Positions 24,120 to 62,278 of a DNA stretch of 64,000 bases are shown piece after piece. Position 1 is the stretch's first letter; the number at the start of each line of letters is the position of its first letter. Under the pieces are notes generated by a model. It worked only from the letters and a program-made list of their open reading frames with translations, was not told where the DNA came from and ran no database searches. The position numbers and the translations under genes were made by a program. This stretch comes from Amphiscolops sp. MND2022. Its lineage: Eukaryota. The stretch covers positions 21,950,001 through 22,014,000 of the forward strand of contig OZ076409.1 in NCBI GenBank assembly GCA_964187785.1, in the 5' to 3' direction.

Positions 24120-26700
24120 AAACGACCCCAAAAATAGTAAACACTGCAAAAATTTCCACTTTTTTAACGTTTTATTGCAATTTTCGTCAAGTTTTCGAGA
24201 AATTTCGTGGATTAGAACGTTGAAAAGGTTCAAACGCAAGCAAGTGTTGTCCAGTAGTCGTTTATGAAGAGATTAATGCGGTTTTTTGGAATAAAAAGAC
24301 CCAAAAATGACAAAATCCAAAAAATTTTCCGATTTTTAACGTTTTAATGCAATTTTCGTCAAATTTTCGATAGACTTCGTGGATCGATCAGAATGTTGGA
24401 AATGCTCAACATGACACTAATTCGTTGTCCAGTAGGCTTTTCCGAAGAGATAATTGCTGTTTTCCATATGAAAAAATCTCAGATTGACACCGAAAATGAC
24501 AAAATTCCCAAAATTTTCAATTTTCAAAAAGTTTATGCATTTTCCCCCAAATTTTCTACGGACTTTGTGGATTGGAACGTTAAAAAGGGTCAACAAGGAA
24601 AGAGTGTGTTGTCCAGTAGGGGCTTTTCCCATAAGTTTTTTTTTTTCTTAATGAAAATGTCTCAAATTGAGACCGAAAATGAGAAAAAAATCAAAAAAAT
24701 TTTCCAATTATCAATGTTTATTTGCTTTTTTCCCCAAATTTTCGACAGACTTTGTGGATTGGAACGTTGCAAAGGGTCATCAAAGAAGGAATGTGTTGTC
24801 CAGTAGACTTTTCCGAAGAGTTTTTTGTAATTTTTTAAGTGAAAAAGTCTCAAATTGTCATCGCAAAAACAAAAAACACAAAATTTTCCAAATGGCAAAG
24901 ATTTTATGCTTTTTGTGTTACAGTTTTGACAGAATTAGTGGATTCGAATGTTTTAAAGTGTCAACAAGGAAAAAGTTGGTAGTCCAGTATTCTTCGATGA
25001 CGGGTGAATTGCAATGTTCTGAATGAAATTATCTCAAATTGGCACAGAAAATGATAAAAATCCTAAAAGTTTCCAATTTTCAAAGATTTTATGCATTTTT
25101 TCCAAATTTTTGACAGACTTCGTCAAATGGAACTTCGAAAAAAGTCAACAAGGAGAAAAGTAAGTTTAGAAAAGAGATAATTGCAGTTTTTCAAACGAAA
25201 ATGTTACGGAATCAACATCGAAAAAGACAAAATTTCGTTTTTTTCTGATTTTCACTATTTTTGTTCAATTTTTGTCGATAGAGTTCGTGGACTAAAGAAT
25301 AAAACGCCTATGGCATGGGCAAATTTGTTGCATTGGTGGCTTTTGTCATGAGATAAGTTCAATTTGTAAAAGATGTAAAACGCCGCAAATTGACCATGAA
25401 CTGTCAAAAAACTTGAAGTTTTTGTCGTTTTTGATGCAATTTCTGGCCATTTTCCGAGAGGTTTTGTTCTAAGTTCCAACACAAGCAACTCAACAACGAA
25501 CGTACGAGGTTTGTATTACACTTTTAGGAAGAGAACATTAGAGCGTTTTGTTTCAAAGACACTTCAGAATGACTCCGAAGGAGTCGAATTACTTCAACAT
25601 CTTCGTTTTTCTGCATCCTGTGTACTTTTTGTCACAATGTTGGCAAACGTTCAACAAAGACTAAACTTATAAGCCAGTAGGCGTTCAAAGAAAAATTTGC
25701 AGACTTCGGTTGGAGAATGGCTCAAAATTGACCGCAAAAAGTCAAAAATGTCAAAATTTTTGTCGATTGCCGACATTTTCAGGGAATTTTTGTTCGAGAT
25801 TGGAAAGTTTCGGTAAAATAAAAGCATTGAAAACCTCCAGATGATAAAAGTAGGTGCGAAGCACGTTTTTGAAAAAAGAGCCCAATTTATGGTCGAAGGT
25901 TTCCTCAGAAACCCAAATATTGTAAAAGCTGATAGTTTTGAAGTTTTTTTTACACTTTTAGGCAGTTTTTGTACAAGTTTCTTCCTTGCAGAAAATGGTT
26001 TAATACAATGAATAATCCGAGTATCTCAAGAAGGCAATTTTGAAAAGACAACTGCATTGTTTTGTTAAAATTGGCTCAAAAACAACCAAAAATCCTTGAA
26101 ACAACAAAAAAGTACGTCGTTTGACAAACTAACTACAATTTTTGTTCAAACCACGAACGTTTTTGAAGAAAAGAACTTCCAATGACCTGAGCGTTGAAAC
26201 AATAGGTTTTTCAAAACGCAAGTGTGGAAAAAGTGGTATCAAGTTCATCTAGTTTACACCGTAGGTGTGAAAGTTTCCGAACCTTCTTTATTTTCAACAA
26301 CATAGTCTCAATTTTGGACCTTTCCGAAACTTTACTTCAATCAGAAAAACCATAGGCTCATGATTGAAACATGTAGCCACGTGTAGTCTTTGGAAAAGAT
26401 ATCAGACAAGTTTGTTTGCCCAAATTTCAAAACCTTTACTTGAAAACGTAAATTATGACCTCATTTACCCTGTTTTCCATTCAAAAACCTCCTAGCAAAA
26501 TCACTAGATGTGGAGTACACCTTCCAAAGGAAGCTGTTTGGAATTACTTGGTGAGTTAGAATGGCGTAAACATTCAACAACAGCTAAACTCGGTGTCCAG
26601 TAGGCTTTATTTTGAAGAGACTTCTGTAGATTCATGTTAGAAAAGTTCCTCAAATTGACCCCAAGCTTGTCAAAACTATTTCCAGTTTTTGACACTTCCG
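24120..26700. repeat. Degenerate tandem array, ~184-bp unit
   Basis: Anchor TGTCCAGTAG at 24248, 24426, 24610, 24797 and ~24981 (spacing 178-187), with increasingly diverged copies to ~26700. Confidence 0.75.
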
Positions 26701-43318: not shown

Positions 43319-45284
43319 GGGAGGGGGGAATAAGATCTAAAGAATAAGATCTAAAATCAAAAAAGGGAATAAGATCTAAAGGGAATAAGATCTAAAATTT
43401 CAGAAGGGGAATAAGATCTAAAATTTGAAAAAAAGAGCCAGCAAAATTGTGAATTGTGAAATTATCACGAATTAGCTGCATCATCGAAAGCCACAAAAAC
43501 ACTTCCATTTATTTTTTGCCCACACATTTTACAGCAAGAAAGCTTTCCGCAATAAAAACATAGCATATGCCCACAGGGTTGAACAAGGAAACAAATGTTA
43601 TTTTGGTCGCATCCGACACACATGTCATAATTTTCTTCATCATCCTCGGAGCATTCAAGATTATCATCTCCGGATTCAGTCGGGTCTTCATTCTCATCTT
43701 GGTCCTCGCCACCAAATGTTTCAAGTTTATGAAAGGATTTTTCGTTGGCTCTGCTAACACGCTTCAAAAACTCGGGGAGGGTCAAACGACCATCCCTGAG
43801 GCGTTCTTCTGCATCTTTTATTGCAGCGTCAACAGTTTTAGAGAATTTTGAGCGGCGCTTTCGCGTTTCAGAACCAGTTGCCAGATCGTTCATCTCAAGA
43901 AAGTAGCTTTTAGCAATTATTTTGATTCTTAGTAAAAATACCCAGAAATTCGGATGGCGAACTTGAATTTTTCGCAATAATCCCCAATGAAAACATTCGA
44001 CCTCCGAGTTCGTTCTTCGGACACATCCATGCACAGAAAGGAGTTGATGGGGAATTTTCCCCATCCAAAACGACTCAATATAATTGTAAAATTTGAACAC
44101 GTTGTCGTCTGTATTCTGAAACTTTGAAGGTGACAAATATTGAAAACCTTCAGGGATTTTCTCAGCAGGTAGAAGGGGCAGAGACATCAGCTGCTGAAGC
44201 CAAAAAAGAAGCGTTTCATTTCTTCTGAGCCCGAAATGAACCCACTTTCTCCAAAGCGCTTGTCTATAATGAAAGTAGCAGCCTTGCATTTCACATTCAA
44301 ATGTGAATTGAATCGAAGAATATAGAGCTGTTTCAAAGTCAACAACGCATTTTTCGGTTTGAACCCCGGATAGTTGTTACGTATTTGGATGAATGCAGCG
44401 TCATAGAGTGTTCGACATTTTGCTGTCATTAAAACATAGAAAACTGGCACCAAATCGTCAGAAACTACGCAGTGGATTGTTAAGAGCTGGTAGAAACATT
44501 TCGGAACAACCTTGAATGTTGCGTCAGCATGGATAGTGGAAACGCTTTCGATGATATCACAGGGTGTTTGTGTGAAGAATAGGAGAGCATACTCCTTTCC
44601 AGCTATGATGACGTTACGGAAAAAATGATTATCATCAATTTTCCCCAAGTCAGTGCTGAGCGCGACCTTAAATTCTTCAGAATTACTTGGAACTGCTGGC
44701 AAAGTTGTGGAACGTCTTTTCTTTAATGTTGAGACAATTTTTGGAAATGGTCTTAGATTTTCGTTGGCGTTTTCGTCATATATTTGCCTTAATGAAGTAC
44801 ATGTTGTCTCAGCTGTATCCTTTATCACTGACTCTGTTTTATGGCGCTTCACTGCATTATGTTCTGGGGGATGATCACACTTTTTAACGATACTCAAAAA
44901 ACCACAGTTTAATTCTGCTGTACCTTTGCATTGATCACGCCATCTATGGCATCGCAGATAAATTTTGTCTTTGACTGCCGAATTCTTGACAAAAATAAAA
45001 CCCTCACTGACGTAGTTCACTGATCCTTTCCGTTTGCCCTCAATTTTTTCATAGTTATTCATCTCAACTGAAAAGTAAAAAACCTGACTTTGAACCACGA
45101 ACATTCGAAAAAAGTACATTCCTAAGTACATTCCGAACGAATAAGATCTAAAGGGAATAAGATCTAAAATTAGATCTTATTCCACTCAATTTTAGATCTT
45201 ATTCCCTTTTTCAAAGTTGAGCATGTCACAATTTTAGATCTTATTCCTTTAGATCTTATTCTTTAGATCTTATTCCCTCCTCTA
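43319..45284 (-). mobile_element. Mutator/MULE DNA transposon
   Basis: 9-bp TSD CGTAGAAAC (43310-43318, 45285-45293). TIRs are built from repeated GAATAAGATCTAAA units. Confidence 0.93.
43465..45062 (-). CDS. FLYWCH-MULE transposase with C-terminal RING finger (~532 aa; one 1-nt frameshift at ~44350)
   Basis: FLYWCH-like YLRCHRWRDQCKG...CDHPP, HADATF (D1), VVDFE (D2, after the shift), GCYFH (CxxH), RTNSEVE (E). RING: CVGC...PCGHMLCFYC...CKMC. Confidence 0.9.
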
Positions 45285-46301
45285 CGTAGAAACAGCGAAA
45301 AGAGCAATCACATGCTCCGTGCCACGTCACACATCGAATTCGAATTTTTGACAAAATTTCTGAACATGTCAAAGTTGCAAAATCGTTTGATATTGCTGTA
45401 CCAGAGCTTGCCGTTACAGTCCATACGATTTTTATGCAATTTTGAACACTCATTCTACTCCCAAGGTGCTCCTGCGTGCGTCAAAAGTGTAGCCGTCAAA
45501 CCTGAGAAACAGCCAAAATTAGCCCAAAAATGGCCAAAGAACCGCTACTTCTGGATTTTCTCAAAAACTTCTACGATTTGAACGAACTTTTATGAAGTCT
45601 TTTTACACCATATATAGGCTTCACATGTGCAGTTTATCAAAATGGCATGACTGGGATTCGAACGAGAGAGAAATAAAAAGTGAACAGTAAAATCCGACTC
45701 CTTTATCGCACATGCGGCTCTGGTTACATGTACTTTTTATCAATGATTTGAAGAGCCTACAAAACTTTGTGAGGTGGATTATTTACTTCAGAATGGAACA
45801 GAAAAATAAAACAGCGAAGAACTTTGAATTTTTAAAAATGTTGTGTTATTCATAGATACAGCGAAAGCTCAAATGCGGGTCATTGAATAACGTCATGTAA
45901 GTTACACTAATATTCCTTATTTCTAACACAGCATACAAAATCTTTTCAAACAACCCGTTCGAGATAATTTTGAAAATGAAACAGCTTTTTGAATTCGTTG
46001 ACTACTTCTTCTCGCTTCGCTAATTCGCTGTTCCGCGAATTAGTGACGCCAAAGCCCCAGATACTTTTGATTAGGTTCGTGGAAAAACGAAACGAGTAAA
46101 ATTCATTCTTCACAAGTTCGTCCTATTTGAATAAAATCTATGAGGAACTGTCTCAAATTTTTGAATCTTCAATTTAGATTTTTGAAAGATATCAGTTGCG
46201 GTGTCCCATTGTTAAGAATTCAATTTTATGTTATACCCACACAATACCTACGCAATTCCTGGCACCACGACAATTCGTACAAACGACATTTCGTACAATA
46301 C

Positions 46302-47855
46302 TGTCGTAAGCACGATTGTCCGAGAATGTGAATCCGTCCTTCTGACGATCACTAAGTGTCTTACTCTTCAAATTGTTTCTAGAGTCTGCATTACGCAGAA
46401 CTTCGGAATATTCTTCCGGTCTCTCAGACGGAACGTTCCATCTCTCTTTGGCCATATGTCCAGAATCGGCCATTAGGGCATTTTGGATTTGGGGAAGTAC
46501 CTGATTACTTATAGCCTCACTTATAGCTCTTTGGATTTGAACACTGACACTATTCATCATCTCATCCATCTCCCGAGATATACGGGAATTCAACTCACTC
46601 GACAATCTGTTGATCTCAGCGTTAGAACTACCTCTAACTGAATTCTGTCCTAATTCGGCATTTGGACCAGGCTCGTCAGTTCTAGAGTTGGGCGATCTAT
46701 TTTCATCCTCATTTTCAAATTCATCACCAAAAAGACTATTAGGTCTTCTGGCCTGATTACTATTTAAACTTTCACTTCTTTCATTCCTGTTGAAATGATT
46801 TCCTCCGAGCATTATGTCTAAGTTCTCGATGTCGGATAACATTTCTGCTTCTCTTGATTTTCTTGCTTTCTTTTGCTTCCTTGTGGTAGGCATTTAGATA
46901 GAAAGTCCGAGGTAAATATTGAATTATTATTTTCGGAAAATAAGAATCAACTGTTTGGTACAAACGTATTACACTTGTGTGTCCCTCAGGAGTGAAACTC
47001 GTATATATACTCTCTGAGGTATGACTTTTACAAAAGGAATTCACAAATAGTATTCAAACATTCCAATCGGGGCACGGGACTAAGGATTTTAGCGGGAAAT
47101 ACACTGCAATCTCCAGTTTTCCGACTCGATTGGGAATTCCTAGCATTCTAGAATTACAATTGTTTATCTATCAAAGGCGGCATCAAAATATTTACTAGTG
47201 CATCAAATGGATCTTCTGTCCATCAAAGGACCTAGCACTCATCAGGAATGTAATATGGCCTTGAAGGCCTAGCAAAAGGTTGAGTATTAAGACAAAGCAT
47301 CGGTTATAGGAAAAGATCTGGCTATTATGAAAGTACAAATACAACAAACATAACTCGTCTCATGTTAAATTACCAGCTTATTTCAGCTTTGAACAGAGGG
47401 GACGAAACCGGCCATTTGACCAGTGTATCAAAAGAGAATATTAAAAGCACGGCAACTGGCCTTATTCGGCCATTAATTAAATAGCATCAATAAACGAGAT
47501 TACATACTGCGATTTGATTGGCTGAGATAACGTGCTCAAGTGACGCTACCGGTACAGTGCCGTACATCACTTGAACACGTTTCCTATACTGCCTTACAGT
47601 CGCTATTGCTTTCAATTATCGCATCAATTCTAACCATACAGTAATTTGATTTGGATTACTCCAATTGTATTATTTTTAACAGACTAATCAATGTAACTGA
47701 ATTTACAAAAATACAAAAGCGTGTTTTGTTACAAAACGTTAGCATAACAGTTTAAAAGTTTCAGTTTCAGAAAATTGGTAGAGTACCTGGTGCCGTTTCC
47801 TGATCTGCGGATGTCGTTGTAATCCTTGTGCCGTCACAGGCGGCAGCCTGCGACA
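46302..47855 (-). repeat. 3' LTR (1554 bp)
   Basis: Direct repeat of 60488-62278 with about 9 substitutions seen and a 237-bp deletion. Minus-strand ends TGTCGCA...TACGACA. Confidence 0.95.
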
Positions 47856-48555
47856 CTGCAGGAGCGACGAAAAGCAGACTGCCCGCGTTCAGCCCGTTGA
47901 TATAAGCTTCGCGCCTTAATCTCGTAATGTACTCCGGTTCGTCCCGCGGCGTTGACCTCTCCATATACCAGTTGACTTTCTCGTCCTTTATGTCATCTAC
48001 GGACCTGCCACATACCAGACATCCTGTATAGCGCACTCTGCTGATATCTTCGTAGGGTTGCGTATTTTGCACATGATAAGAGGCATGAAACCCGCTTGCA
48101 AAGGATTGTACTAAGGGAGTGTGATTGCTTGGTCCTTTCTCGTGTTCCGGCGGCGACATTGGAGACTCCGGTACCGGCAGCAGCGTCTTGCATAGCTCAA
48201 TTCGCGTCTTCTCCACTCTCTTGGGTGGAGCGTAGCATCTCTCATGGTCGAAGTATCTTTGGTCCATTTTGGGGGTAGTGTCCTTGTGCGGCTGTGAGCT
48301 GCTTGGACCGGCTACCATGTGTTCCTCTTCGAAGTCCTCCGTGGTCATGATTCTGCCTCCTATCAGCATAGGGCTCGAAGTCACTTCTTTCTCTATTCTC
48401 GCGATGAGCTGCTCCGTGTCCGTGGAACAGTCCGTTTCCCATACTTCTGACAGTTCGTCGTCGCTACTTGATATGTAAATCACTGAAGCTTCAGACTCAT
48501 CCGAGCTATCTCCGTCGAAGTCAAATAATTTTCTTGCCAAGTTGTATTTGGACAT
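47767..48555 (-). CDS. Retroelement accessory ORF3 (262 aa from ATG 48555), unknown function, not env-like
   Basis: Intact ORF in the env position with an acidic N-terminus (ARKLFDFDGDSSDESE) and CLVC. No signal peptide or clear TM segment. The last 89 nt lie inside the 3' LTR. Confidence 0.75.
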   Translation of the reverse strand: MSKYNLARKLFDFDGDSSDESEASVIYISSSDDELSEVWETDCSTDTEQLIARIEKEVTSSPMLIGGRIMTTEDFEEEHMVAGPSSSQPHKDTTPKMDQRYFDHERCYAPPKRVEKTRIELCKTLLPVPESPMSPPEHEKGPSNHTPLVQSFASGFHASYHVQNTQPYEDISRVRYTGCLVCGRSVDDIKDEKVNWYMERSTPRDEPEYITRLRREAYINGLNAGSLLFVAPAVSQAAACDGTRITTTSADQETAPGTLPIF

Positions 48556-48649
48556 TATGACTTTCTTTGCAATTTTTGAAACTTGTGAGTCGACTGAACG
48601 GTGAGGAGATTCAAATTCAAATAAGTTTACCAACTCCCACCTCAAGACG

Positions 48650-49460
48650 AGTCTGGTAATTTCCCGGGAGACTCGTTTCGGCGGTAGAATCTTAGGTTAT
48701 TCAACCTTATCTGTCGTAAACTTTCATGAATGGAATTTCCAGCGGCGGTTAATCCTTTGAAACTTAGGTAGGAACCCTCCATCTTCGTCTTCTCAAGTGG
48801 GTAGTCAGAGAGGTGTTAAGTTGACAACAACAAATAATTCCGCTTTCAAGTGGGTAATTAACATCGAGCTTGATAGTAATCAACGGCATGCGTCAGGTGA
48901 AGTCTACTAAAATGGCTTCAGCCAATCAAATTTGGGCTTCGATAAATTTGAAAAATGAATAGTAAAGATGGCGGAAAATAATAATTTTGAATAACTAAAA
49001 TGGCGAAAATAATAAATCGAAATAATTCAAAATGGCGGAAATAACAATTTGAGTAACTATAATAACGGAAATCCCAATTAGGATAACAAACGAAATGGAA
49101 CAAGATGATAAACCGAAATGGGGTAAACGGCCGTAATCGGCCAATAATTCCATAAGTTGTAAATAATGAAGTAATTTTTGTACATTTCGCTGGCAGACTC
49201 CATGTACAGAATAAATATGTAAATAATCCCGTAATATTAGTCTGGTAATTTCTTCAGCCACGAACTCCAACTTTCTCTCTTTTAATTGTTACATTATTTG
49301 ATTCATCTACTATTCACTCCTTACTCTTTCCATTATTCTCCTTTGTCTACAACCCCAGTTTCTGCATTTATTGGGCTCGCTCATAATTCCATTGCCAGCG
49401 TCACCTCTACGCAGGTCCCCGATTTCTTCTTCTTCTTTGGTCCGAATCCAGCTGTTCAAT
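48650..49460. promoter_or_regulatory. Putative bidirectional internal promoter
   Basis: Non-coding gap between divergent ORFs. Three ~31-33-bp repeats with AA(G/A)ATGGCG (48964-49058) and CCAAT boxes at ~48922 and ~49141. Confidence 0.45.
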
Positions 49461-49466
49461 CCGGTC

Positions 49467-52400
49467 ATGTCGGACCGACAAGGACTTTCCCCGGAAGAGC
49501 AAAAACTTCAGTGCCAAGAGATCGTTAACACAGGTTGGTTTGAGTAATCATATTTTGAACTAATTAACGTGATCAAGGTTAACTTTGTTCATAAACTGCT
49601 TCCTGTTTCCATCAAAAGACACGTGATAACATGTCTATTTAAAATTTCAAACACTTCCGGAAGATTTCTAAAGCGGTCAAAATGGACTTTTTCCAAGGAA
49701 GCACACCGCCAAATTTCATTTCTTTCTGTTTAGTTGGCCAGAATGAAGATGAACCACAAACTTCTTCCAACACTGTTCCGGATCCCTCCGTTGCACTAAT
49801 TCAAGTGGTTAGCCCACCTTCTAATACTGATCCAGTTCGGCCCCCTGTTCCTTCTCCTCCACCTTTTCCGCCACTAGTTTCTACAACTTCCCGGATTCGA
49901 ACTGGGGAAATGACTCCCCTTTATAGTCCCGACAGTAACACAGACGTTACTTCTTATGCTGATGAGATGGTCCAACGGCTAGAGGATGCACAGGCTAGGC
50001 GCATAGCTGAAGCAGACGACACAATCGAAACAGCTTTCAATACGGCCCCCAACTCGCAAGTTCCGGAGAGTAATTTGAATCCCCTCCTCCCAAGGTCAAG
50101 CACTCCAACACTTGATGCTGAAACAGTTGGGCTGTCCGCCAACCTGTCACAACTTGAGACTGCCTTTGGCGTTGTCATCGGTACACAGTCTGACTTGCCA
50201 GTTCTTGTTCCAGTTCCCTTACAAACAGAATTGCGGGAGCGAAGTGATGGGGATAACGCGTCCTCCACTTGTGACTTTCCTGGACTGCCAAAAGATAACC
50301 CGAAAGTCCACTTCTTGACGGATGACCCTACTGAGAGTTAGAAGGCTAGTGACGACACAAGTCATGTAGAAGGACCAGCCCTTTACAGCTCTGTCCCTTT
50401 TGGATCTGAATCCGGAACTGAAGCCGGGGATGAGTCAGGACCAGGACATGACACTGTGGGACTTGGTATGCCTTCCAGCTCTCGGGGACCTGATGACCAT
50501 CTTCCAGAATTAACCGGTCGAAGCTGAGCCATCTTGAAGACGTACTTTGCTGACACCAAGCCATTCAACCTACCGCTAGGACACCCCACTGTGGCTTTTA
50601 CTGAGGCTCAGATGTATCATTTGCTACGAGTCCTGAGTGATGAAACTCTTCGAATGTCCTACTCTACCATGGAGAAGATGGTCGTCGATGCCGTCAGAGG
50701 CAAACCTACTGTTTCACCTTCTAAGACGTCTCACTTCCTCATCAGGAACAGAGCACAAACTCCAGGCAGATGGGATCAGAACGACCAGAGTTCTTCAGAA
50801 GCTGAGTACGACTCGAGCGCGGATTCTAGGGCCTTAACTCCTACCAGTGCAGGAGATACAGGAGATTCTTCCTTCGAAGGGGAATCGGACAGTGCCACTG
50901 AAATGGCTCTGATTTCAGCTACCTTGGGGGGCGAATCCCAACTTGCTCAATCTTCGCAAGAAAAGGACAGATTCGTTGCCACATGTACCACAGGTGATGA
51001 TGAGACCACGGGCCCCAGTAGTCAGGAAACTACTCTCCTAGAGCTCCAACAGCAAGCCCGAGGGACAAAGGCGAAAGGTTCTTCTGGGCGCAAACTCCCC
51101 ACTAAACCAAGAAGACTTGCCAGTCGAGGGGTCCCAATGCGGGAAGAATTTTTCGCCAAGATTGGGTGGACCCGATCTTTTATCTCTGGACCCGCTGATC
51201 CGGTACACAATCCACATATGGTTTGGTGCCATATGTGCAAAAAGAATTTTTCAATTCGGTCCAAGGGCGCTTTCGAAATCTTACGCCACCATCGTACAGA
51301 GAGACACCTGCGACGAGACCAACGTTGGAGGTACGAACACCTCAAGAGTGTGGACCCAGCCAGTGGGAAAATACGGCATCGAGTCCGAGGTCGGAATGGG
51401 AAAGTGTTGACCGCAATCGAGCTAGCCAAGGAGTTGCCGAAGTTCATTCACACTGAACTTGTAGACGTAGGAGAAAGATTTCCCTTCTACGACGACTTCA
51501 TGCAAGGGCGACCTACTGCCTTAGTCACCTCTGAGTCGCGGGCAAAACTACAGCTGTCCATCATAGGAGACTTCCTACAGACCCAAGGCGGCTTCTTGCT
51601 GCTGAAGAGTCTGTGGTCGAGAATCAGTGCCCACACCGACTACCAGGCTAACTTGTGCGATTTCGATTGGTCAGAAGAGCGCATTACGGTAGGTTCTTTT
51701 CTGTAAGTTGACCAATCACTTTCGCGTTATCGACTAGATTACTAAATGTACTTGTCCATTTCAGGCCATCTTCCAACATTTCTTTAACTGCGCTATGAAC
51801 CACTTGGCAGAACAGATTACGGCTGAGCAGTGCTTTGCTATAGAGTTCGAGGACAGGGGCCCTAACTGGTACATGACAGTACGATACTGGGAAGGCCAAA
51901 ATCTCCACCGGGTCCTCATCTGCAGGAGCCAACTACCAGCTACTGACCTGACCGGGGAACTGGGATCATTGTCCCGCCTGTTGTCTGTTGTTTCCACCAA
52001 GGCTGACATAGTGGCGTGCTCCGGAAGCTCTGTCGATCTTCTTCGCACAATTGATTATTCTCCCCTCTTCTCCCGAGCTGTGCAGAGTTGTTTTCGGTTC
52101 GACCAGTTGAATCTACCCAAGATGATGCATAAGACCAGTTACAGTGTCTTTGGCCACATAGATTTTTTATCAGTCCTACGTGGTCTAGTTATCTCTCTTG
52201 GTGGAGCGCATTCTGAAGACTGGTACCAACGCAGCCCAGAGCTAGCTCAGGTAAATAACGTTCACCTTTCTAGTGTTGCATTCGTAATCAATCAGGTGTT
52301 AACTGAGGGGGGGGGAGGAGCGAATTTCCTTAGTTGTTCGAGTTTAAGTTGCGATTTCCTTTCCCAGGCCATATCCAGCTGCAAATTGGAGCTCTCCACT

Positions 52401-53936
52401 TTACCGACCCTTTGCCAGGAACTGATTGAGGAGTGGAAGCCGATAACAAGCTACTTGACGACGCACGTGCCACAGCAACAAGGTCAAGGAGTCCGTACTC
52501 GGGTAAGTAACCAGATCCTTACAGCCTTTAAATATATGCTGATTAGGAGTTGCTTGAGATATATAGAAGGATGAGTTCCCATTTCCGTTCAGTGTCTATT
52601 GTACTAATATAGGGTCTTATTACAGGTGCAAAGTTTTGAGTGGGGGCTAATTTGTGACGAATTCATTCTTGTCAAGCTGGAATTCTTTTGCCGGATCGTC
52701 AGTGACTGTTAGTGTGCCTTTATTATCTTTAGTCAGGTTTTCTGCTTTAAACTGTACCAATTCCTTTCCTTAGATAACACTAGCTTCATTGTCAACACTC
52801 ATCATAGACGAGATGCCTCATTCTTCCTCTGTGGGGAGGTTTCCAAATTCGTCTACCAGCTGTGCTTCAGATGTTTCACTAGCGATTCGGTTCCTTTGCC
52901 AAGTGCCTGGTTTCTCCTTCTGGGATTCCAAGTGGGTGACGGGACCCTCATGACTGCTGGGGAATTTCTTGTCCGGCTCAATATGACCAACAAGGTTGCC
53001 TCTGCTTGCAAACGAAAGGCCGAAGGGGTCCATTCTGGAAAACGGTCGGATCGGGCCTTAGTCCAAAAAACAGCCGAGACCATCAAGACTGAGTTCGTCC
53101 AGGATGCCATGGCTTATTTAAAGTACCTAATTAGTGAAGTACTGCGACAAGCTGGGCTCAGTTCCAATATCATCAAGGGGCTGGCCGCATTCGACCCTCA
53201 CATTATGGTCAAACGTCCCACGGAGGTGGCGCTCCGGCATTTCGACATCCTTTTTAGCACGTTTCAGCGCCGTTCTTGGATCAGTGCCTCAGTCGAAGCA
53301 GCCTGCAGAGATCAATATGTTGAACTGATTGACTACCTTCGCGCTAAGTACTCTGGTGGGCTCGAAGTTACAGAAGAGGCTAAGGACCTCTTAGATTTCC
53401 TGATGAACCTTGATTTCCTGCAAGCACGAGAGCATCTCCTCCACTTATTCAAGTTGTGCTGCCTTTGCATCACTACAGTGGGTCCTGAATTTCCAGTTGT
53501 AAAAGTGGGCAGAGTTGATACTTCCGGACAACGGGGTCGCTTCATTGACGTCGTTCTCCCCATCCAGAGCTATTTGATCGGGGTTCCTGGCTCTGTAGCG
53601 AGGTGTGCGAGCGAGTCTAACCTCACCAATTTCTCCCTTCTTTCTGCCTCTTTTGGGTCATCTGCTTTTTCGCCTACTTATGACCCTTGGGAGACGGTTG
53701 ATGTCTTTGGGCGGACGAAGATATACAAGTCGCTTCTATCCTCTTATCGTTCCGCAGTCTCAGAGCCTTCAGTTGGGTCTGCTCAAGTGGAAGCCAATGA
53801 TACGTCTTCGGTCCTGGATGATGCGGCATTGAAAGTGCCCAGTAGCAGTAAACGCAAACGGACTGAGAAGAGAGCTGCTCGTTCCCGTTCCTCATCCGTC
53901 TTCAGCGAGTCTTTGTCCAGTTCTTCTATTGTTTAA
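49467..53936 (+). CDS. Antisense spliced cargo gene, ~1295 aa, zinc finger plus hAT-transposase-like. Exons 49467-49533, 49734-51688, 51765-52250, 52368-52502, 52626-52707, 52774-53936; two nonsense codons in this copy
   Basis: Five GT-AG introns with matching phases (1,0,0,0,1); the exons sum to 3888 nt = 1296 codons. Zinc finger WCHMCKKNFSIRSKGAFEILRHHRTERH. In-frame TAG at 50339 and TGA at 50525. Confidence 0.8.
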
Positions 53937-54153
53937 GTGTACATATGTATTTATGTACAATTTGAAACTGTATTCTTTGTTGATTTTCTGATTCTGTATT
54001 TGTTTGTTATGATTTCATTTCTGTGCCCCTATATTATTCATTTGCTAAGGGGTCTGCTTTGTGTCCCATTATTTATTCAAAAAATTTGCTTCTATGGGAC
54101 AAAAGAAAACGTTAAAGAAAAGAAAATAGGTTCAGGGCTTATTTCAGTCTTTC

Positions 54154-57100
54154 TTAGTATCTGAAGTCTTCTGAGTAGTTCGGATTAGGGTTAGGCCTGA
54201 GATTATATTTCCCTCCTCTAGGGCTCAGACTTTCATTTCTAGCATCGTTTTCGGATATTTCGGGCACGATAATATCATCCCCCCTTCTGGAAGATTTTTG
54301 TGCATCGTTTTCATTCATTGGATTTCTTTCTGAAAAAATTTCATCCTTTTCCGGTCCATCTGCCGTATTCGGCAAAAAATTTTCTTGGTTTTTCGGGAAA
54401 ACGGCCGGATTCGGCCAATCAGATTTGTTATTTTCTGTCACTGCAGTAGCTTCATTTCTTTCAGTGACGTCATCATTTAATCGTTCATCTCGGCTGTGCG
54501 ACGCACGATCGGCAAGATTTGATTCGTCACTCGTGATTACATAATCCACTTCATTCTCGCTTGCGTCACTTGCATTCGCTTCTGCCGCACTCGGCTGTGC
54601 GTCATTCGTCAAGCTGGCTGGAATAGGCTCGCTGCCTCGTGTATCTAGCTGTCCGCCAAAGTTTGTTTCCCACGTTGTTACATACAAGTCGTCTTGCGGA
54701 ATGATTATTTCGTCATCCGGCTGTAGACGCTGTTCTCGGAAATTGTCCTCAAGTGGCTGATTTGGAACAAACTTTTTAAGACGAATTCGATGCAAGATCT
54801 GCGTTTTATTTGTATTAAGCCTGCGGACAATGTAATTCTCATTAGGTAAGGTCTTCTGGACTATAAATGGTCCAACCCAGCGATAATCCCTGAATGGAAT
54901 TTTTGATCCTTGATGATCCGCTTTCGGCTGTAATACAAAACAGTAATCGCCCTCTTTGAGTGGGGCGGCTTTTGCTTTTCGGTCGTAATACTCCTTATAT
55001 TTGATATATGACTGCATGATGTTCTGTTTTGTTTTGTCAATAAGGAGTTTGGTCCGGTTCTGGATTTCTTCTGCGAATTCAGTAGTCGGGTGGATTGGTT
55101 CATTTGGATTCATTCCAAGTTTGTGATCCAAGATGTTGTATGGGATTCTCCCATGGAACACTCTTGTGGGTTCGCATCCGATACTGGCATGATAACTAGT
55201 GTTATGATTGAGAACTGCTAAAGGCAAATATTTATGCCATTGTCGGCGATATTCCCCACATGCCATTTTCAGGTTCGTTTTCAATGAGGCATGAGTTCGC
55301 TCTAATTTTCCGATAATTTGCGGGTGTTTCGTCGTTGCACATTTTAGGGTAATGCCTAAAATCTGTGTAATTTCCGCAATGATCGTGGAAGTAAAGGCAG
55401 TTCCTTTGTCCGTAATTAGCGTCGTCGGTAGGTAAGAATGTTTGGTCATAATATCTATGATTGCTTTAGCTACATTGATCGTTGATGCGTCCGTAAGAGG
55501 ATAAGCAAACAAGTATCGGGAGAAGACATCAATTGCGGTTAAAATGTTTTCGTATCCTCCACTTGGGGGAAGATTCGGCAATAAGTCGATTTGCATGGCG
55601 TCTTCGGGTCCAAGGTCCCATTCCGGCAAGTTAAGTAGTTCAGGCGTGATTGTTGCGTTTGGGACTCGTTTGTCCTTTGCACATTGTTCACACCCTTCTA
55701 CCCACTTTTTGACATATTTTGCCATGTTAGGGTAATAATACCTTTGTCTGATTTCCTGCAACATTTTTGAAATCCCGGGATGTTTATGCGCTGTCCCGTG
55801 AAGGGAGTGGAGCAATTCCCGAAGTAGGTGTTGCGGGAGCAAAATTTGATGGTATTTAACATTCCCTGTTTCATCAAAATATTGCCTTGTCAGGATTTCG
55901 TCCTTTAGTACAATTCGTTCCAGATTATTTGCATAATGTCTAAATCGGGCATCCTGTTGCAGTATGTTTTCTGAATAGTCTTCATGAAGGAGCTTTGCCT
56001 TCAATTGTTGCAATACTGCATCTTTGGACTGCTCGATGATTATCTGGTTTGTTTTCTTTAATCGGACTTGAATGTCTGGTTGTTGTTTGACCAGATTGGT
56101 TGACAGAGTTTCTATGGTAACAGTGGGCTCGTCAATTGCTGGATTTTTCCTGATTGCTTCTTTTCTTGCCCAAAACTGTTCTTCTGTTTCGTTGTCGTCA
56201 TTCGTATAGAATATTTGTTCTTCCTGTGATACCCCCGCAGATTGAACATTTATCTCAATGGGTAAAGTTTGTACGTCCTCGCGGATTTTCATGACTAATT
56301 TATCCTTCGGATCTGCCTCCAATCGGGACAAATAGTCAGCTGCTGTGTTCTGTGCCCCCGGGATATGTGCTATGACAAAATTGAACTGAATTACATAATC
56401 ACATGCATTCCACAGGGCTGGGGGTATTATTTTTGTTTGAAAAAATCTCGTCACAGCTTTGTTGTCTGTGAGAATAATGACCGGTTTGGGTGCACCCCAG
56501 AATATATGTCCAAATTCTTTGAATGCAAAATAAATTGCAAGGAACTCTTTGGCATATATCGACATCTTTATCTGGGCTGGGGTGAAGGTTTTAGAGCCAT
56601 ATGCCACCGGTGCATAGGATTTTCGAAAGGAAGTAAATTTCTGGTTCGGATCATCTTCTATCAGTACTGCGTATCCTGCTGCACCAAAACTTGCATCTGT
56701 CATTAATGCAATTTGCTTATTCGGGATGGGTTGTTGTAGGGCCAAGTCGCAACATTTGTCTAGTGCTTTATTGATTTCTTCGAATTGTTGGACTAATTCT
56801 TTCGATACTAGGACTTTTTCGTCACTTTTTAGCATCTTGTAGAATGGAGCAAGGCGTTCAGAGAGTCTTGGGATATAATTCCTGTAGTAGTTTAGGAATC
56901 CCAAATATCGTTGTAAAGCCTTTTTCGACTTCGGGAATTTGGTCTTTTCCAGAAAGTTTTGCACGTTCTGTTTCTGGGGTTTGACGCCTTGCGGGGTAAT
57001 AGTCCTTCCGAGAAAATCAATTTCTTTGGCACCAAAGTGACATTTGTGCATTGTCAATTTAAGGCCTGCTTCCTGAATGCATTTGAATGTAGCTCTCAGG

Positions 57101-59360
57101 TTAGCTATGAGGTGGTCAGCGTCGTTTGCTGCAATGCCTATATCGTCCACGTACTGGGCACACTGATCCGCTTTGATGACTTTGTCGAGGTATTCTCTCA
57201 TAAAACTCGAGAATGCAGATAGTGACCGGCTAAGGCCTTGTGCCAAACGTCTGTAGGCGAATGTGCGACTGGCAAAATTGAAAGCCAACAATTCTATTGA
57301 ACGTTGGTCGGCCATTGGTAGGCAATGGTATGCCTGCGAACAGTCTAATTTACAGAATAGTTTTTTGCCTGCCAAGTGTTGGGCAGCATCAACCAAGGTG
57401 CTAACAAGGTGATTATTGTTTATATAATCAACCGAGATGAGGTTGTTGATTTTCCTCAAGTCAACCAAAAGTTGTAGCTTCCCGTTTGGTTTCTTTTGGG
57501 CGAATATTGGGCTTGCATACTTTGAGAACGGTAGAGTGGTGATGATGCCATATTTGTGTAACATGGCTAATTCGACTAGGATGTCCTCCTTCAAGTTGAT
57601 AGGAGCTGGAAGACTTTGATTATAGGCTGGGGAATCGTCTTTAGGTGTCAGTTTCACCTTGAAGTCCTCGTTCATGCCTATATCGAATCGGTGTCGTGCA
57701 AAGATGTCGTGGAATTCCACTAACAATTCTTCTATTTTCTCCTTCTCTTCAGGAGTAAGGGTGGAATCTTTCCAATCAAAGTTTTCTAAGAATTTCGCAC
57801 GTGATTCTTCGTCTTTGGTGGGGTCAAGTGTCTCTAGGTCCTGTAAGGCCTGTAATTCTTGAAGGATTCGTTTTTGTATGGGCGTATGTTCGTCGGGGTT
57901 TCCAGGATTTTCTGGAGTTGGGAACCAGTAGTTTTCGGTGTTTTGTGGATTTCTGTTCGTCTTGATCAGGCTACTGACGTAATGGGCTGCTTGCTCTTGG
58001 TCGTTTTGCAACAAATGCCAGGTCGATGCCGGGTCTACCGGTTTGACGTATTTCATTTGTTCTGGTGTCATGACTGAGAAACTAGCAATGTGGAGTCCCT
58101 TTTTAAGTTTATAAGGGTGATCTGTGAAGTTATTCACTGGTATCATTATATTGCCGTCGTTCAAGGTGACCAAGGCTGGGCAGAATGTGATGTCGCCTTC
58201 TTCATGCAGAAGGTCACTTGGCTGTAAGATCCCTGTGACCGTGTTTTCAGGGTATAATAGGGAATTAGTCCTAATTAGGACTCTGTCATTTGGCGGGATT
58301 GTGATTTCGGTAGGGTTCAAAATTGGTTCTAGTACATTTGAGTATTTATGGTCAGCTGTTTTGAGCTGCATCGAAAAAAACGGAAAGTTCAGTATTCCTT
58401 GCCTCATGTCCAGAACTGTATGATTTCGCTGGAGGAACATTAGTCCTATGATTGGTCCTGTCAGATGTTCTATTACTATGAAGATTTCATGGAACTCAAT
58501 GTCACCAACTTCGAATTTGAGCTCTATTGTACTTTTAGGAGTTTCCAGTTGCCCATTAGCGACCATGATTTGGAAGTTCGGAGGCGGACCCTCTCGGATA
58601 ACTGATTGTGGTGAAAGGAGTCTAATTTTCCGGAGGTCCATTTCGGGGATTGCACTGGATAAGGCGCCAGTGTCGATAAGTCCATCAATGGTCAATTCCC
58701 CAAAGTCCATAGGGAAATATAGCATGCGTTTCTTGCATTTCAAGTTTATGTTGGTAGACAGGGGTATACAGTCTGGTTCACCTTCTCTGGTAATAAGGAT
58801 GTTTTGGAACTGACTTTCGTCAAGTAGTGACTGTGGTATTGTTTCTTCTGGTTTGTCTGAGGTCTCGGTCCCTAAGGGGTTTGGGAACACCGGATGGCTT
58901 GTACCATCGTTCATCTGCCATGTTTCAATCAATGCTCTGGTTTTCTTGTTATGGGTGATTGGTGGATTGTCATGGACTGATCTGTTATAGAGTTCTATAT
59001 CATCAATAACGTATTGGAATTGTTACAAATCCTGGTTGTAAAGTTCGGCATCCCAATAGGGATCTCGTCCATAGTCAGGATCTATGTAGGTAGGGTTGTA
59101 GTTGTCTACCAAGGGAATGGGCCTGAATCGGCTATTGAAAGCGGATGTGTAATCAGGGTCCCAAGCAGGAATTGGTTTTTGGAACAAATGGGTATTATTA
59201 TAAGTAATAATGGTAGCTTTTTCCATCTGTTGCTGCCAGACAACAGAAGGATAGCCCATCAATTGTTGATTGTATTGGTGAAAAATTTGCGTTGGAGGGT
59301 CCGATCTGATGTATTGTCGGACAGATATTAGTTGGTTGTATTGGAGTCGTGGCGAAGTTA
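54154..59360 (-). CDS. pol: Gypsy Pol (protease, dUTPase-like spacer, RT, RNase H, integrase); one in-frame TAA at 59023-59025
   Basis: LIDTGA; YVDD; TDAS/EFLAI/TDNK/ADYLSR; HHCC plus D,D,E (IDLL, TDKG, LERTH); WVGPF module. The pol frame runs from the slippery site with that single stop. Confidence 0.95.
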
Positions 59361-61079
59361 GTTTTTTGACTCATCATTGGAAGATGAGGTCTGTGAGTTG
59401 GAAGGTGTTGATTTGTTTTGTGGTTTCTGCGCCTTTGAGTTGGGTTTACCGTCATTGGTGTCATCTGGTCTGGTGCGTTTGGGTTTGAGATGTGCACCAG
59501 CACCTTGCCAACATCTTTCTTCCGGGTGGTTCTTTTTACCACAAGTGCCACACTCCGGGTACGTCTTTTTCTGAGTCTGTTTGCCTTGTTCGGCATCTTT
59601 TTGTTTTTTCTTCTTCAATTTCTCGCAATCTTTGACCATATGGCCCTTTTCTTTGCAATAATTGCACGTTATATCACTCATCTGTACATTGGAAGGAACA
59701 GTTTTTGTCTTGCCAATCGAAGATGTCATTGATGCTATGGGCAGGTCGTCAGACTCTTCGAGTGCATTCAGTTCCAGTTCTCGTTCTAGATGAGCGACAA
59801 TTTCATCGTAAGAGCCATTCTCTAGTCTAGCCATGTTGACTGATCTTTTGAGCTTTGGTGGCAGTTTTGCATATAGGAGACTGTCGATCATTTTTTGGGC
59901 ATTGTCTCCGAAGGCTTTTTCTGCTCCTTGGTTAAGCTCTTCAAGAAAGTCTGGCAATTTGGTCGTGTTAGGGTCAAAGACTAGGCGATGCCATTTGTGT
60001 TTTGCAGTTGCCTGAGATTCAGGTTTGACGTACTTTCGTCTGAAAATGACAAGTACATCCTCAAGAGTTTGTCTGTTGGCGTTGCTTATGTTTCTGAATG
60101 TTTGTAGTGCATTCTTTCGCAGCAAGGAATGGAAGTGATTGATTTTCATTTGTTCGGTCATCTCAGGCTGCATCTTGATCATCGTATGGAATAAATCCTC
60201 AAACAGCTCGAACTTCTCACTTTTTCCGTCGAATGTCATTGTGTTGGAGTTGACTGGGCGGATAGTGAGTTGTTGGGCCGTTGTACGGTTCTGCATACTA
60301 GTCAAAACATCTGCTAGCCTGTTGATGGGGTCCTGTTCTGATGCCAGAGCGGGTCGTTCTCGTGCTGGGATCGTCGTGTCGAGCAGCGGAAGGTCATCAC
60401 AGGATCTGTTGAGATGACTAGTGGATGGCATTCGTCCTGTGAGAAACTCAGGAACTTCAATTGGAGATTCGTTTTCTCCTGTCACCATGTCGTAAGCACG
60501 ATTGTCCGAGAATGTGAATCCGTCCTTCTGACGATCACTAAGTGTCTTACTCTTCAAATTGTTTCTAGAGTCTGCATTACGCAGAACTTCGGAATATTCT
60601 TCCGGTCTCTCAGACGGAACGTTCCATCTCTCTTTGGCCATATGTCCAGAATCGGCCATTAGGGCATTTTGGATCTGGGGAAGTACCTGATTACTTATAG
60701 CCTCACTTATAGCTCTTTGGATTTGAACACTGACACTATTCATCATCTCATCCATCTCCCGAGATATACGGGAATTCAACTCACTCGACAATCTGTTGAT
60801 CTCAGCGTTAGAACTACCTCTAAATGAATTCTGTCCTAATTCGGCATTTGGACCAGGCTCGTCAGTTCTAGAGTTGGGCGATCTATTTTCATCCTCATTT
60901 TCAAATTCATCACCAAAAAGACTATTAGGTCTTCTGGCCTGATTACTATTTAAACTTTCACTTCTTTCATTCCTGTTGAAATGATTTCCTCCGAGCATTA
61001 TGTCTAAGTTCTCGATGTCGGATAACATTTCTGCTTCTCTTGATTTTCTTGCTTTCTTTTGCTTCCTTGTGGTAGGCAT
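59358..61079 (-). CDS. gag: Gag, 573 aa, two CCHC zinc knuckles
   Basis: Capsid-like FDGKSEKFELFEDLF...; knuckles CNYCKEKGHMVKDC and CGTCGKKNHPEERC. Confidence 0.93.
   Translation of the reverse strand: MPTTRKQKKARKSREAEMLSDIENLDIMLGGNHFNRNERSESLNSNQARRPNSLFGDEFENEDENRSPNSRTDEPGPNAELGQNSFRGSSNAEINRLSSELNSRISREMDEMMNSVSVQIQRAISEAISNQVLPQIQNALMADSGHMAKERWNVPSERPEEYSEVLRNADSRNNLKSKTLSDRQKDGFTFSDNRAYDMVTGENESPIEVPEFLTGRMPSTSHLNRSCDDLPLLDTTIPARERPALASEQDPINRLADVLTSMQNRTTAQQLTIRPVNSNTMTFDGKSEKFELFEDLFHTMIKMQPEMTEQMKINHFHSLLRKNALQTFRNISNANRQTLEDVLVIFRRKYVKPESQATAKHKWHRLVFDPNTTKLPDFLEELNQGAEKAFGDNAQKMIDSLLYAKLPPKLKRSVNMARLENGSYDEIVAHLERELELNALEESDDLPIASMTSSIGKTKTVPSNVQMSDITCNYCKEKGHMVKDCEKLKKKKQKDAEQGKQTQKKTYPECGTCGKKNHPEERCWQGAGAHLKPKRTRPDDTNDGKPNSKAQKPQNKSTPSNSQTSSSNDESKN
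59361..59367 (-). promoter_or_regulatory. -1 ribosomal frameshift slippery heptamer A_AAA_AAC
   Basis: Lies immediately before the gag TAA. The -1 frame is the pol frame and is open (LTSPRLQYNQ...). Confidence 0.8.
60476..60487 (-). promoter_or_regulatory. Primer-binding site (TGGTGACAGGAG; tRNA-Leu-like, tentative)
   Basis: TGG directly follows the LTR-terminal CA, exactly where LTR-LTR identity ends. Confidence 0.75.
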
Positions 61080-62278
61080 TTAGATAGAAAGTCCGAGGTA
61101 AATATTGAAATATTATTTTCGGAAAATAAGAATCAACTGTTTGGTACAAACGTATTACACTTGTGTGTCCCTCTGGAGTGAAACTCGTATATATACTCTC
61201 TGAGGTATGACTTTTACAAAAGGAATTCACAAATAGTATTCAAACATTCCAATCGGGGCACGGGACTAAGGATTTTAGCGGGAAATACACTGCAATCTCC
61301 AGTTTTCCGACTCGATTGGGAATTCCTAGCATTCTAGAATTACAATTGTTTATCTATCAAAGGCGGCATCAAAATATTTACTAGTGCATCAAATGGATCT
61401 TCTGTCCATCAAAGGACCTAGCACTCATCAGGAATGTAAACAACATTACACACATTCCTTTCAGGCACGTGCCACCGCGTGGCCTGAAATAAGTTCTGCA
61501 ACAATATGTAGTACATCATGTTATTAGGCCTAATACGGCCAATTATCATGTTAGCAATTATATATGTTAATCAACCGATTAGCCCCAAATGTATGTACCA
61601 CTTTACTTTTCAAAAGAACGCAACGACTTCAGTGGCCGGAAATAGCCGGCTAATTAATAGGCAAGCACTAATGAAATATGGCCTTGAAGGCCTAGCAAAA
61701 GGTTGAGTATTAAGACAAAGCATCGGTTATAGGAAAAGATCTGGCTATTCTGAAAGTACAAATACAACAAACATAACTCGTCTCATGTTAAATTACCACC
61801 TTATTTCAGCTTTGAACAGAGGGGACGAAACCGGCCATTTGACCAGTGTATCAAAAGAGAATATTAAAAGCACGGCAACTGGCCTTATTCGGCCATTAAT
61901 TAAATAGCATCAATAAACGAGATTACATACTGCGATTTGATTGGCTGAGATAACGTGCTCAAGTGACGCTACCGGTACAGTGCCGTACATCACTTGAACA
62001 CGTTTCCTATACTGCCTTACAGTCGCTATTGCTTTCAATTATCGCATCAATTCTAACCATACAGTAATTTGATTTGGATTACTCCAATTGTACTATTTTT
62101 AACAGACTAATCAATGTAACTGAATTAACAAAAATACAAAAGCGTGTTTTGTTACAAAACGTTAGCATAACAGTTTAAAAGTTTCAGTTTCAGAAAATTG
62201 GTAGAGTACCTGGTGCCGTTTCCTGATCTGCGGATGTCGTTGTAATCCTTGTGCCGTCACAGGCGGCAGCTTGCGACA
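60488..62278 (-). repeat. 5' LTR (1791 bp)
   Basis: Direct repeat of 46302-47855; contains the first 592 nt of gag. Confidence 0.95.

Follow-up and report, generated by a model that had tools for sequence, protein, structure and literature searches.

Structure of the locus

We analyzed a 64,000-nucleotide (nt) stretch of the Amphiscolops sp. MND2022 genome (contig OZ076409.1, positions 21,950,001 to 22,014,000; hereafter the window), which holds a complete 16-kb Ty3/Gypsy long terminal repeat (LTR) retrotransposon on its minus strand and, inside this element on the plus strand, a predicted multi-exon gene. The plus-strand open frames 49643-50341, 50528-51706, 51738-52574 and 52713-53936 lie in two reading frames, and six exons joined in phase via five GT-AG introns give a single frame of ~1295 codons between pol and the 3' LTR. 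This six-exon, in-phase model with its product of ~1295 residues was first put forward in an earlier sequence-only reading and stands with one correction: the donor of intron 5 is better placed 6 nt downstream, at 52708, which leaves the phase unaffected. We prefer the new donor because its GT is kept in three diverged families of the gene, where position 52702 reads GC. The zinc finger, the FAIEFED..VRYWE segment and the KRKRTEKR tail singled out in the same reading were all located in the sequence. The features of the antisense gene are as follows.

49273..54153, plus strand: antisense-gene cassette, delimited by the drop in identity relative to the sister element L045
49467..49533, plus strand: exon 1, starting with ATG, 67 nt, phase 1
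49534..49733, plus strand: intron 1; an ATG at 49682 is in frame, and a CACGTG box and the palindrome CTTCCGGAAG also lie here
49734..51688, plus strand: exon 2, encoding an N-terminal part of variable, Pro/Ser/acidic sequence, then a conserved block and the zinc finger, behind which a further conserved stretch follows
50339-50341 and 50525-50527, plus strand: stop codons of the window copy in exon 2, as seen in the copy alignment
51227..51308, plus strand: C-x2-C...H-x4/5-H zinc finger with BED-like spacing, from sequence and conservation
51689..51764, plus strand: intron 2, 76 nt, absent in the distant relatives P0278 and P0367
51765..52250, plus strand: exon 3, 162 codons, starting with the strand-like motif FAIEFED..MTVRYWE; 318 database relatives
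52251..52367, plus strand: intron 3, 117 nt, with an uninterrupted frame in the window copy
52368..52502, plus strand: exon 4, 45 codons, a block present in diverged copies
52503..52625, plus strand: intron 4, GT-AG across copies
52626..52707, plus strand: exon 5, with the revised end (the original donor at 52702 would end it at 52701)
52708..52773, plus strand: intron 5, with the revised donor GTTAGT at 52708
52774..53936, plus strand: exon 6, 386 codons plus stop; the encoded domain is all-helical and is followed by a C-terminal block that is conserved, by a disordered tail and by a basic cluster
53850-53873, plus strand: basic KRKRTEKR tail, from sequence
53937..54153, plus strand: spacer between the convergent stops of the antisense gene and pol, with islands shared across cassette types

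The carrier is a true Ty3/Gypsy LTR retrotransposon. Self-blastn of the window reveals two direct repeats, the LTRs, which are 99.0-99.6% identical and have TG..CA termini; the element is bracketed by the 5-bp target duplication GTATT, and a TGG.. primer-binding-like site follows the 5' LTR. Within the pol frame, Pfam matches to protease, reverse transcriptase, RNase H and integrase occur in the Gypsy order. A gap of ~6.3 kb separates the pol stop (54154) from the 3' LTR, and the antisense gene lies inside that gap. The parts of the element, including its open reading frames (ORFs), are listed below.

60488..62278, minus strand: 5' LTR, from self-blastn, with TG..CA ends and flanking GTATT
61079..59358, minus strand: gag ORF, 573 codons with two CCHC knuckles, starting ~590 nt inside the 5' LTR
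59022..54154, minus strand: pol ORF, 1622 codons in the window copy, from the ORF list and Pfam matches
47767..48696, minus strand: sense ORF3, 309 codons, extending into the 3' LTR; conserved and mostly open in other copies
46302..47855, minus strand: 3' LTR, from self-blastn, with TG..CA ends and GTATT

Conservation of the frame and introns among genomic copies

To evaluate the exon model we used copies of the gene from the same 1.07-Gb genome. A DNA search yielded 45 scored copies of 1640 first-look candidates, at 84-100% identity, and 30 of these were aligned together with three copies at 84% (n = 33). With the original exon model the spliced frame is uninterrupted in 21 of 30 copies (1293 or 1298 codons); with the donor at 52708 it is open in 22 of 33 (1295 or 1300 codons). 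The donor GT of introns 1 to 5 is present in 33, 32, 33, 33 and 32 of the 33 copies, respectively, and the acceptor AG in all 33 at each of the five introns. The stops at 50339 and 50525 had been suspected of being peculiar to this copy, and each is indeed seen in one copy among 30, the window's own, with a sense codon in all others.

The copy at ~84% nucleotide identity retains the entire frame and every GT-AG pair; the lengths of exon 1 and exons 3-6 are unchanged, while introns 1, 3, 4 and 5 differ by 6, 8, 1 and 1 nt. As intron lengths differ and exons are fixed, the frame in this lineage works only after intron removal, and this includes intron 3, whose length goes from 117 nt in the window to 109 nt among the 84% copies and ranges over 95-146 nt in the diverged families. 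Across the alignment, 49 runs of insertion or deletion (indels) fall in 582 intron bases versus 31 in 3888 exon bases, a roughly 10-fold higher density in introns; moreover, 16 of the 31 exon runs are a single shared in-frame 15-nt indel.

The pattern of substitution is that of a coding sequence under constraint: sites variable in at least two copies are distributed over codon positions 1:2:3 as 68:49:265, and singleton variable sites as 87:54:135. The ratio of nonsynonymous to synonymous substitution rates (dN/dS), calculated by the Nei-Gojobori method (NG86) for three subfamily pairs, is 0.096, 0.093 and 0.107, values that may be understated for a reason given below. Thus, the ratio near 1 that would have spoken against a functional gene was not found. 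Divided by region, the first 250 residues have a dN/dS of 0.23, and the rest of the protein lies at 0.03-0.10. As a reference, dN/dS over the adjacent final 426 codons of pol is 0.096 and 0.116 in the two deeper comparisons; the shallow pair stands at 0.46. Hence, purifying selection on the antisense gene, as estimated from these alignments, is as strong as on pol.

Sequences in public collections bear on the exon 2/3 junction: the database relatives P0278 and P0367 are contiguous over it, whereas other relatives read the intron through as an insertion. Because P0278 and P0367 run across without interruption, we regard this junction as independently confirmed. The gene is retained in most copies of the element and in the diverged families described below, in agreement with the original view of it as an intron-containing antisense component of the retroelement. 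Judged from these sequence comparisons, it is a true accessory gene of a large Gypsy clade, one that codes for protein and is maintained by the replication of the element itself.

Diverged families and database relatives

A search of the genome with the exon-6 protein gave 108 scored matches of 8309 first-look candidates, with identities of 56-100% that cluster at 88-100% and 56-64%; most frames are open. At three diverged loci, where the exon-6 protein is 57-63% identical to that of the window, we found the same five exon blocks and GT-AG introns, with intron lengths of 72-222, 95-146 and 88-112 nt. In two of these (L035 and L036) the gene is antisense and adjoins the end of pol. At the third locus pol is truncated. 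The diverged antisense-gene copy L034 (G000:C12:36627417-36637365) adjoins no more of pol than its final ~140 codons, after which comes an ORF3-like fragment; it is a deleted or nested derivative. The element family is very abundant, with exon 6, pol and ORF3 each giving thousands of first-look candidates in the genome.

In public protein collections, relatives counted as cluster representatives number 213 for the finger region, 208 for exon 6 and 318 for exon 3. All are unnamed ORF calls, none with a Pfam domain, and no longer (spliced or fused) form was present among 907 candidates.

The 5' end and intron 1

Intron 1 is the sole part of the 5' region that blastn aligns between the window family and the three diverged families (75-78% identity); relative to L045 it is 75.6% identical, with flanks of only 46-49%. 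The conserved block contains the donor (AG followed by GTTGGTTT), the CACGTG box, the palindrome CTTCCGGAAG and the in-frame ATG at 49682. The surroundings of this ATG are A-rich, and the codons after it differ mostly synonymously between families. In all three diverged families an ATG is found 16 nt before the same donor, in the phase of the 67-nt exon 1 of the window. The true start is nevertheless doubtful, since the ATG at 49682, within intron 1, is retained by all 33 copies, with an open frame in each. From sequence, three arrangements of the 5' end are possible: (i) an upstream exon combined with a conserved intronic promoter, (ii) two alternative starts or (iii) both, and the intron-1 block may serve as an internal promoter or as an alternative first exon.

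Diverged cassettes on a near-identical backbone

We crossed the coordinates of exon-6 matches with those of matches to the last 400 codons of pol (104 scored of 17,207 candidates) and obtained 23 neighbouring pairs, of which six join a pol of 91-96% identity with an exon 6 of 61-62%. One such element, L045, was aligned to window positions 47600-55600. Outside the cassette, L045 is 92% identical to the window over 47600-47799 and 94-99% over 47800-49199 and 54200-55600; inside, identity is 42-79%. The left break lies at ~49272, and the right break coincides precisely with the pol stop codon, so that the cassette consists of the gene, ~195 bp upstream and the 217-bp downstream spacer. The sense ORF3 of L045 is 96% identical to that of the window, and every exon block of the antisense gene is still there. 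The zinc finger is the best-conserved part of the cassette, with 79% nucleotide identity to L045 over 51200-51399. The G+C content of the cassette, 0.47-0.51, is above that of its surroundings.

At the cassette edges we found no matching 8-mer duplication and no convincing inverted repeat, and hence the cassette is no recent nested DNA transposon; this fits the expectation of the sequence-only reading that the gene is not bounded by separate terminal inverted repeats (TIRs) or a separate target duplication. Together with its predicted promoter and the 3' spacer, the gene is thus a recombination unit, with deeply diverged versions residing in near-identical gag-pol-ORF3-LTR backbones. Both template switching between co-packaged RNAs and homogenisation of the backbone around an old polymorphism fit this pattern.

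A joint transfer of the cassette and the LTR promoter (U3) was also considered and rejected: the element with the diverged cassette shows 92-98% identity in ORF3 and at the beginning of the LTR.

Two islands in the spacer, 53938-53960 and 54066-54084, are conserved between cassette types. They include a TGTACA..TGTACA stretch that is rich in TGTA and ATTTA, and may represent 3'-end or RNA-stability signals.

Anatomy of the predicted protein

As read from a single open copy, the predicted protein begins with a first third that is variable and Pro/Ser/acidic; a conserved block and an acidic/Ser linker then lead to the C-x2-C..H-x4/5-H finger, followed by ~130 conserved residues, the exon-3 domain (FAIEFED..MTVRYWE), two small exons and exon 6 with the basic cluster. 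The N-terminus is acidic and fast-evolving, of the kind seen in activation domains, and the basic tail is retained throughout the family. Structure prediction covered exon 6: the AlphaFold2 model, based on 76 sequences, has a mean predicted local distance difference test (pLDDT) score of 64, with residues ~15-232 forming a confident all-helical domain and the tail disordered. Together, the conservation of the finger and the basic tail point to a nuclear, DNA-binding product.

Proposed role and descent

We propose, with a probability of about 0.5, that the gene encodes a trans-acting nuclear DNA-binding regulator of the element and that this protein descends from a transposase. In such a scheme, the antisense introns would be inherited by each new copy, since genomic RNA is the opposite strand; introns antisense to genomic RNA are not spliceable from it and therefore persist, as follows from established retroelement biology. 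Transcription would begin from a promoter belonging to the gene itself, located in the conserved intron-1 block or a short way upstream of it, and the spliced product would be translated into a ~1295-residue protein with an acidic/Pro/Ser N-terminus, a BED-like finger, a strand-rich middle, a helical domain and a basic nuclear-import tail. This protein would enter the nucleus and act in trans on the transcription or chromatin state of the element. Its action would be via binding, not catalysis, and it probably descends from a hAT-type transposase that has lost its catalytic residues.

The origin from hAT transposases or ZNF862 suggested by the sequence-only reading fared less well than the gene model: no significant Pfam, PDB, Foldseek or hhalign match was obtained, and what remains are weak leads of three kinds. 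First, the language-model search Atlas places the middle part nearest to DUF4371, FAM200-ZBED5_RNase-like, ZBED1_RNase-like and DUF659 (0.87-0.92), and exon 6 nearest to Dimer_Tnp_hAT and FAM200-GTF2IRD2-like (0.88-0.89), so that two parts of the protein match hAT N-terminal and C-terminal families in the correct order; these matches serve as leads only. Second, Hermes is the only long structural alignment among 48,161 chains, although the match is weak. Third, we aligned the protein by hhalign to two profiles made from hAT transposases of the same genome, whose ORFs are readily recognised by Pfam. The finger falls in register with the BED fingers of the hAT ORFs, non-significantly (E 0.076 and 0.09; probability <1%), and in the best paths, likewise non-significant, the EFE motif is paired with the block of the first catalytic aspartate and the window's LFKLCCLCITTVGPEF stretch with the C-terminal signature of hAT. 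Relaxed local hhalign runs yield the motif pairings guessed earlier, at E 0.12-0.15. Because these weak leads agree with a hypothesis stated beforehand, we consider hAT descent, judged from sequence, somewhat the likelier origin.

Several results weigh against the proposed role and descent. Pfam searches found no relevant family, either for the exon pieces at E up to 10 or for 76 exon-6 relatives at E up to 5. Sequence and profile searches of the PDB gave chance-level rows only, and Foldseek returned nothing at E <= 0.001. Aligned by hhalign to five diverse hAT transposases of the same genome, the protein reached probabilities of 0.6% and 0.08%. The Atlas neighbours share 157 and 132 features, under the 170 typical of family members. 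As for expression, AATAAA and ATTAAA are absent from 53937-54500, and we infer from sequence that the gene is transcribed, where it starts, how its five junctions are spliced and where poly(A) is added, and the function, too, purely in this way. A trans-acting protein is, furthermore, expected to be under weaker per-copy selection than that observed, unless it acts preferentially in cis. Finally, for the pair L002 and L032 dS is 0.75, which exceeds the intron divergence of 0.22; for this reason dS may be inflated and dN/dS understated. Nevertheless, dN relative to intron divergence gives a ratio of ~0.3, still well under 1. In the same pair, dS of the antisense gene is also well above upstream non-coding divergence. 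Faster mutation of synonymous sites, perhaps by CpG decay (cassette G+C 47-51%), or constraint on the short introns may account for the high dS.

Further domain searches bear on the same question. In these searches Pfam gave nothing apart from Zn_ribbon_19 (E 0.014); zf-BED has no match to the exon pieces, and the hAT dimerisation domain PF05699 is found in 0 of 76 exon-6 relatives at E up to 5, while its model finds 150 scored sites elsewhere in the same genome. For this C-terminal domain, hhalign gives probabilities of 0.1% and 0.08%. Transposase_28 (PF04195) is absent from the exon pieces (E up to 10) and from the 76 exon-6 relatives (E up to 5).

A less probable but serious alternative is that the same accessory gene is not derived from a transposase but goes back to a zinc-finger gene captured from the host, or to one whose origin cannot be traced, and was taken up with its introns via read-through or recombination in antisense orientation. 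Every significance-bearing hAT search is negative, DUF4371 has no match anywhere in the genome, and the 213, 208 and 318 database relatives carry neither a Pfam domain nor a name, all of which such an origin would accommodate. It would not account for two non-overlapping parts of the protein being independently nearest to hAT N- and C-terminal clusters in the right order, or for Hermes being the only long structural alignment; nor did a free-standing host paralogue turn up, though no dedicated search was made.

That the protein is a still-active nuclease or transposase aiding integration or excision of the element appears very improbable. The acidic EFE motif is fairly well kept, as 50 of 60 sequences have the one E of the motif and 46 of 59 the other, but the D before the SGC motif is present in 32 of 84, and no invariant acidic triad can be placed in the alignment of relatives. 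Moreover, neither TIRs nor an 8-bp duplication occur at the ends of the cassette or the element, which has its own integrase and the 5-bp duplication typical of it. As the candidate catalytic positions are not invariant, a non-enzymatic protein fits.

We give equally little credence to the idea that the gene is a former DNA-transposon insertion in a Gypsy element, carried along as a passenger without a role for the retroelement. The sharp edges and raised G+C content of the cassette are compatible with this; the edges show neither TIRs nor a target duplication, however, the cassette spreads by retrotransposition only and yet is under purifying selection on its frame that matches pol, and diverged families keep the gene in the same place. 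A functional antisense transcript in place of a protein, acting for example through double-stranded RNA or small RNAs, a possibility raised for plant elements in the excerpted text of PMC7264820, is hardly to be expected either, since it leaves unexplained the 1295-codon frame open in 22 of 33 copies, the third-position excess and the dN/dS of 0.1, although such a transcript could act in addition to the protein.

Returning to the transposase-derived regulator, its most far-reaching version is that a Gypsy clade domesticated a catalytically dead hAT-type transposase as a spliced antisense regulator, diverged types of which are swapped as cassettes. We advance this tentatively and regard it as rather doubtful in its entirety.

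Further observations on the element and its surroundings

The 5' LTR carries ~230 bases (61440-61669) that are missing from the 3' LTR, the remainder being 99-99.6% identical; the difference arose either as an indel once the element had inserted or through a small nested insertion. The gag frame crosses the end of the LTR and the primer-binding site, and because gag starts inside the LTR, the 3' LTR also holds the first ~197 gag codons (ORF 46893..46231). In most other copies the pol frame has 1738 codons, compared with 1622 in the window copy, which is probably interrupted near the start of pol as well, in addition to the two stops in the antisense gene. ORF3 has no Pfam match; a search of the genome gave 128 scored matches of 8108 first-look candidates at 65-100% identity, mostly open, and ORF3 is a second conserved accessory gene of the element.

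At 43465-45176 on the minus strand, two adjoining ORFs contain a FLYWCH zinc finger and a C3HC4 RING finger by Pfam, and probably belong to another mobile element just beyond the Gypsy element. Positions 24118-25161 hold an internal tandem-like repeat, ~72% identical at offsets of ~175-550 nt. An Rfam scan of the whole window gave 0 matches.

Comparison with known systems

Accessory genes separate complex retroviruses from simple retrotransposons, and next to nothing is known of them outside plants and vertebrate retroviruses. The closest parallel comes from plants: antisense ORFs between pol and the 3' LTR are established in the Ty3/Gypsy elements Retand, Grande and RIRE2 and mostly carry Transposase_28, according to the excerpts available of PMC11963269 and PMC7264820. 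The features by which the plant reviews recognise an aORF-3R, namely antisense orientation, location between pol and the 3' LTR and presence in most copies, are all found here. Shared as well are the long pol-to-LTR region, the suspected nuclear DNA-binding regulatory role and an origin that has not been traced. Unlike the plant ORFs, the gene in Amphiscolops shows no match to Transposase_28, contains five introns, encodes a BED-like finger within a product of ~1295 residues and is swapped as a cassette; in the plant review PMC7264820, the word "intron" occurs 0 times.

HBZ of human T-cell leukemia virus type 1 (HTLV-1) is a small nuclear basic leucine zipper (bZIP) protein whose transcript begins from the 3' LTR and has a spliced form, and which modulates viral transcription. 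Like HBZ, the present gene is an antisense-strand retroelement gene, presumably with its own promoter and with a nuclear product that would modulate transcription of the element; in contrast to HBZ, it is five times larger, lies entirely inside the element, is split by five introns and encodes a protein of a different class. Retroviral antisense genes including HBZ are mentioned in PMC11963269.

In bdelloid rotifers, extra ORFs of LTR elements (ORF3s) are discussed alongside gag and pol, as far as the excerpted text of PMC5408684 goes; in this paper "intron" occurs 0 times and "antisense" once, about small RNAs. To the extent described there, these are likewise animal-type LTR elements with conserved extra genes downstream of pol, whereas the gene described here is antisense and spliced, and its element also has a sense ORF3 of its own.

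Domesticated hAT proteins (the ZBED family, GTF2IRD2/FAM200 and DAYSLEEPER) offer a possible common plan of finger, RNase H-like and helical/C-terminal parts, with loss of catalytic residues and use in DNA binding, as we propose here. Those proteins were domesticated by hosts, whereas here the domesticating party would be a mobile element, and membership in the hAT group is without a significant score. Were the descent true, one class of mobile element would have recruited the protein of another.

Within the portion of the open-access full-text literature accessible to us, we found no multi-exon antisense gene in any LTR retrotransposon, no antisense accessory gene of this kind in a non-plant element, no transposase-like (hAT-like) gene recruited by a retrotransposon and no cassette-like exchange of an antisense accessory gene. 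Antisense accessory genes as such are known from plant elements and some retroviruses; the spliced six-exon form exchanged as a cassette has not been described. Its intron structure provides a built-in marker that tells antisense mRNA from genomic RNA, and elements with the same backbone and different cassettes constitute natural swap experiments. The cassette pattern also raises a testable question, namely whether retrotransposons carry type-specific regulators.

Diverged modules on near-identical backbones are familiar from the swapping of retroviral env genes and from the mosaic immunity regions of phages. The module exchanged in the Gypsy element differs from these in being an antisense accessory gene. 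If the full scenario of domestication and cassette swapping is true, it would be a case of one mobile element domesticating another, and the cassette would constitute a specificity or immunity-like module comparable to those exchanged in env swapping.

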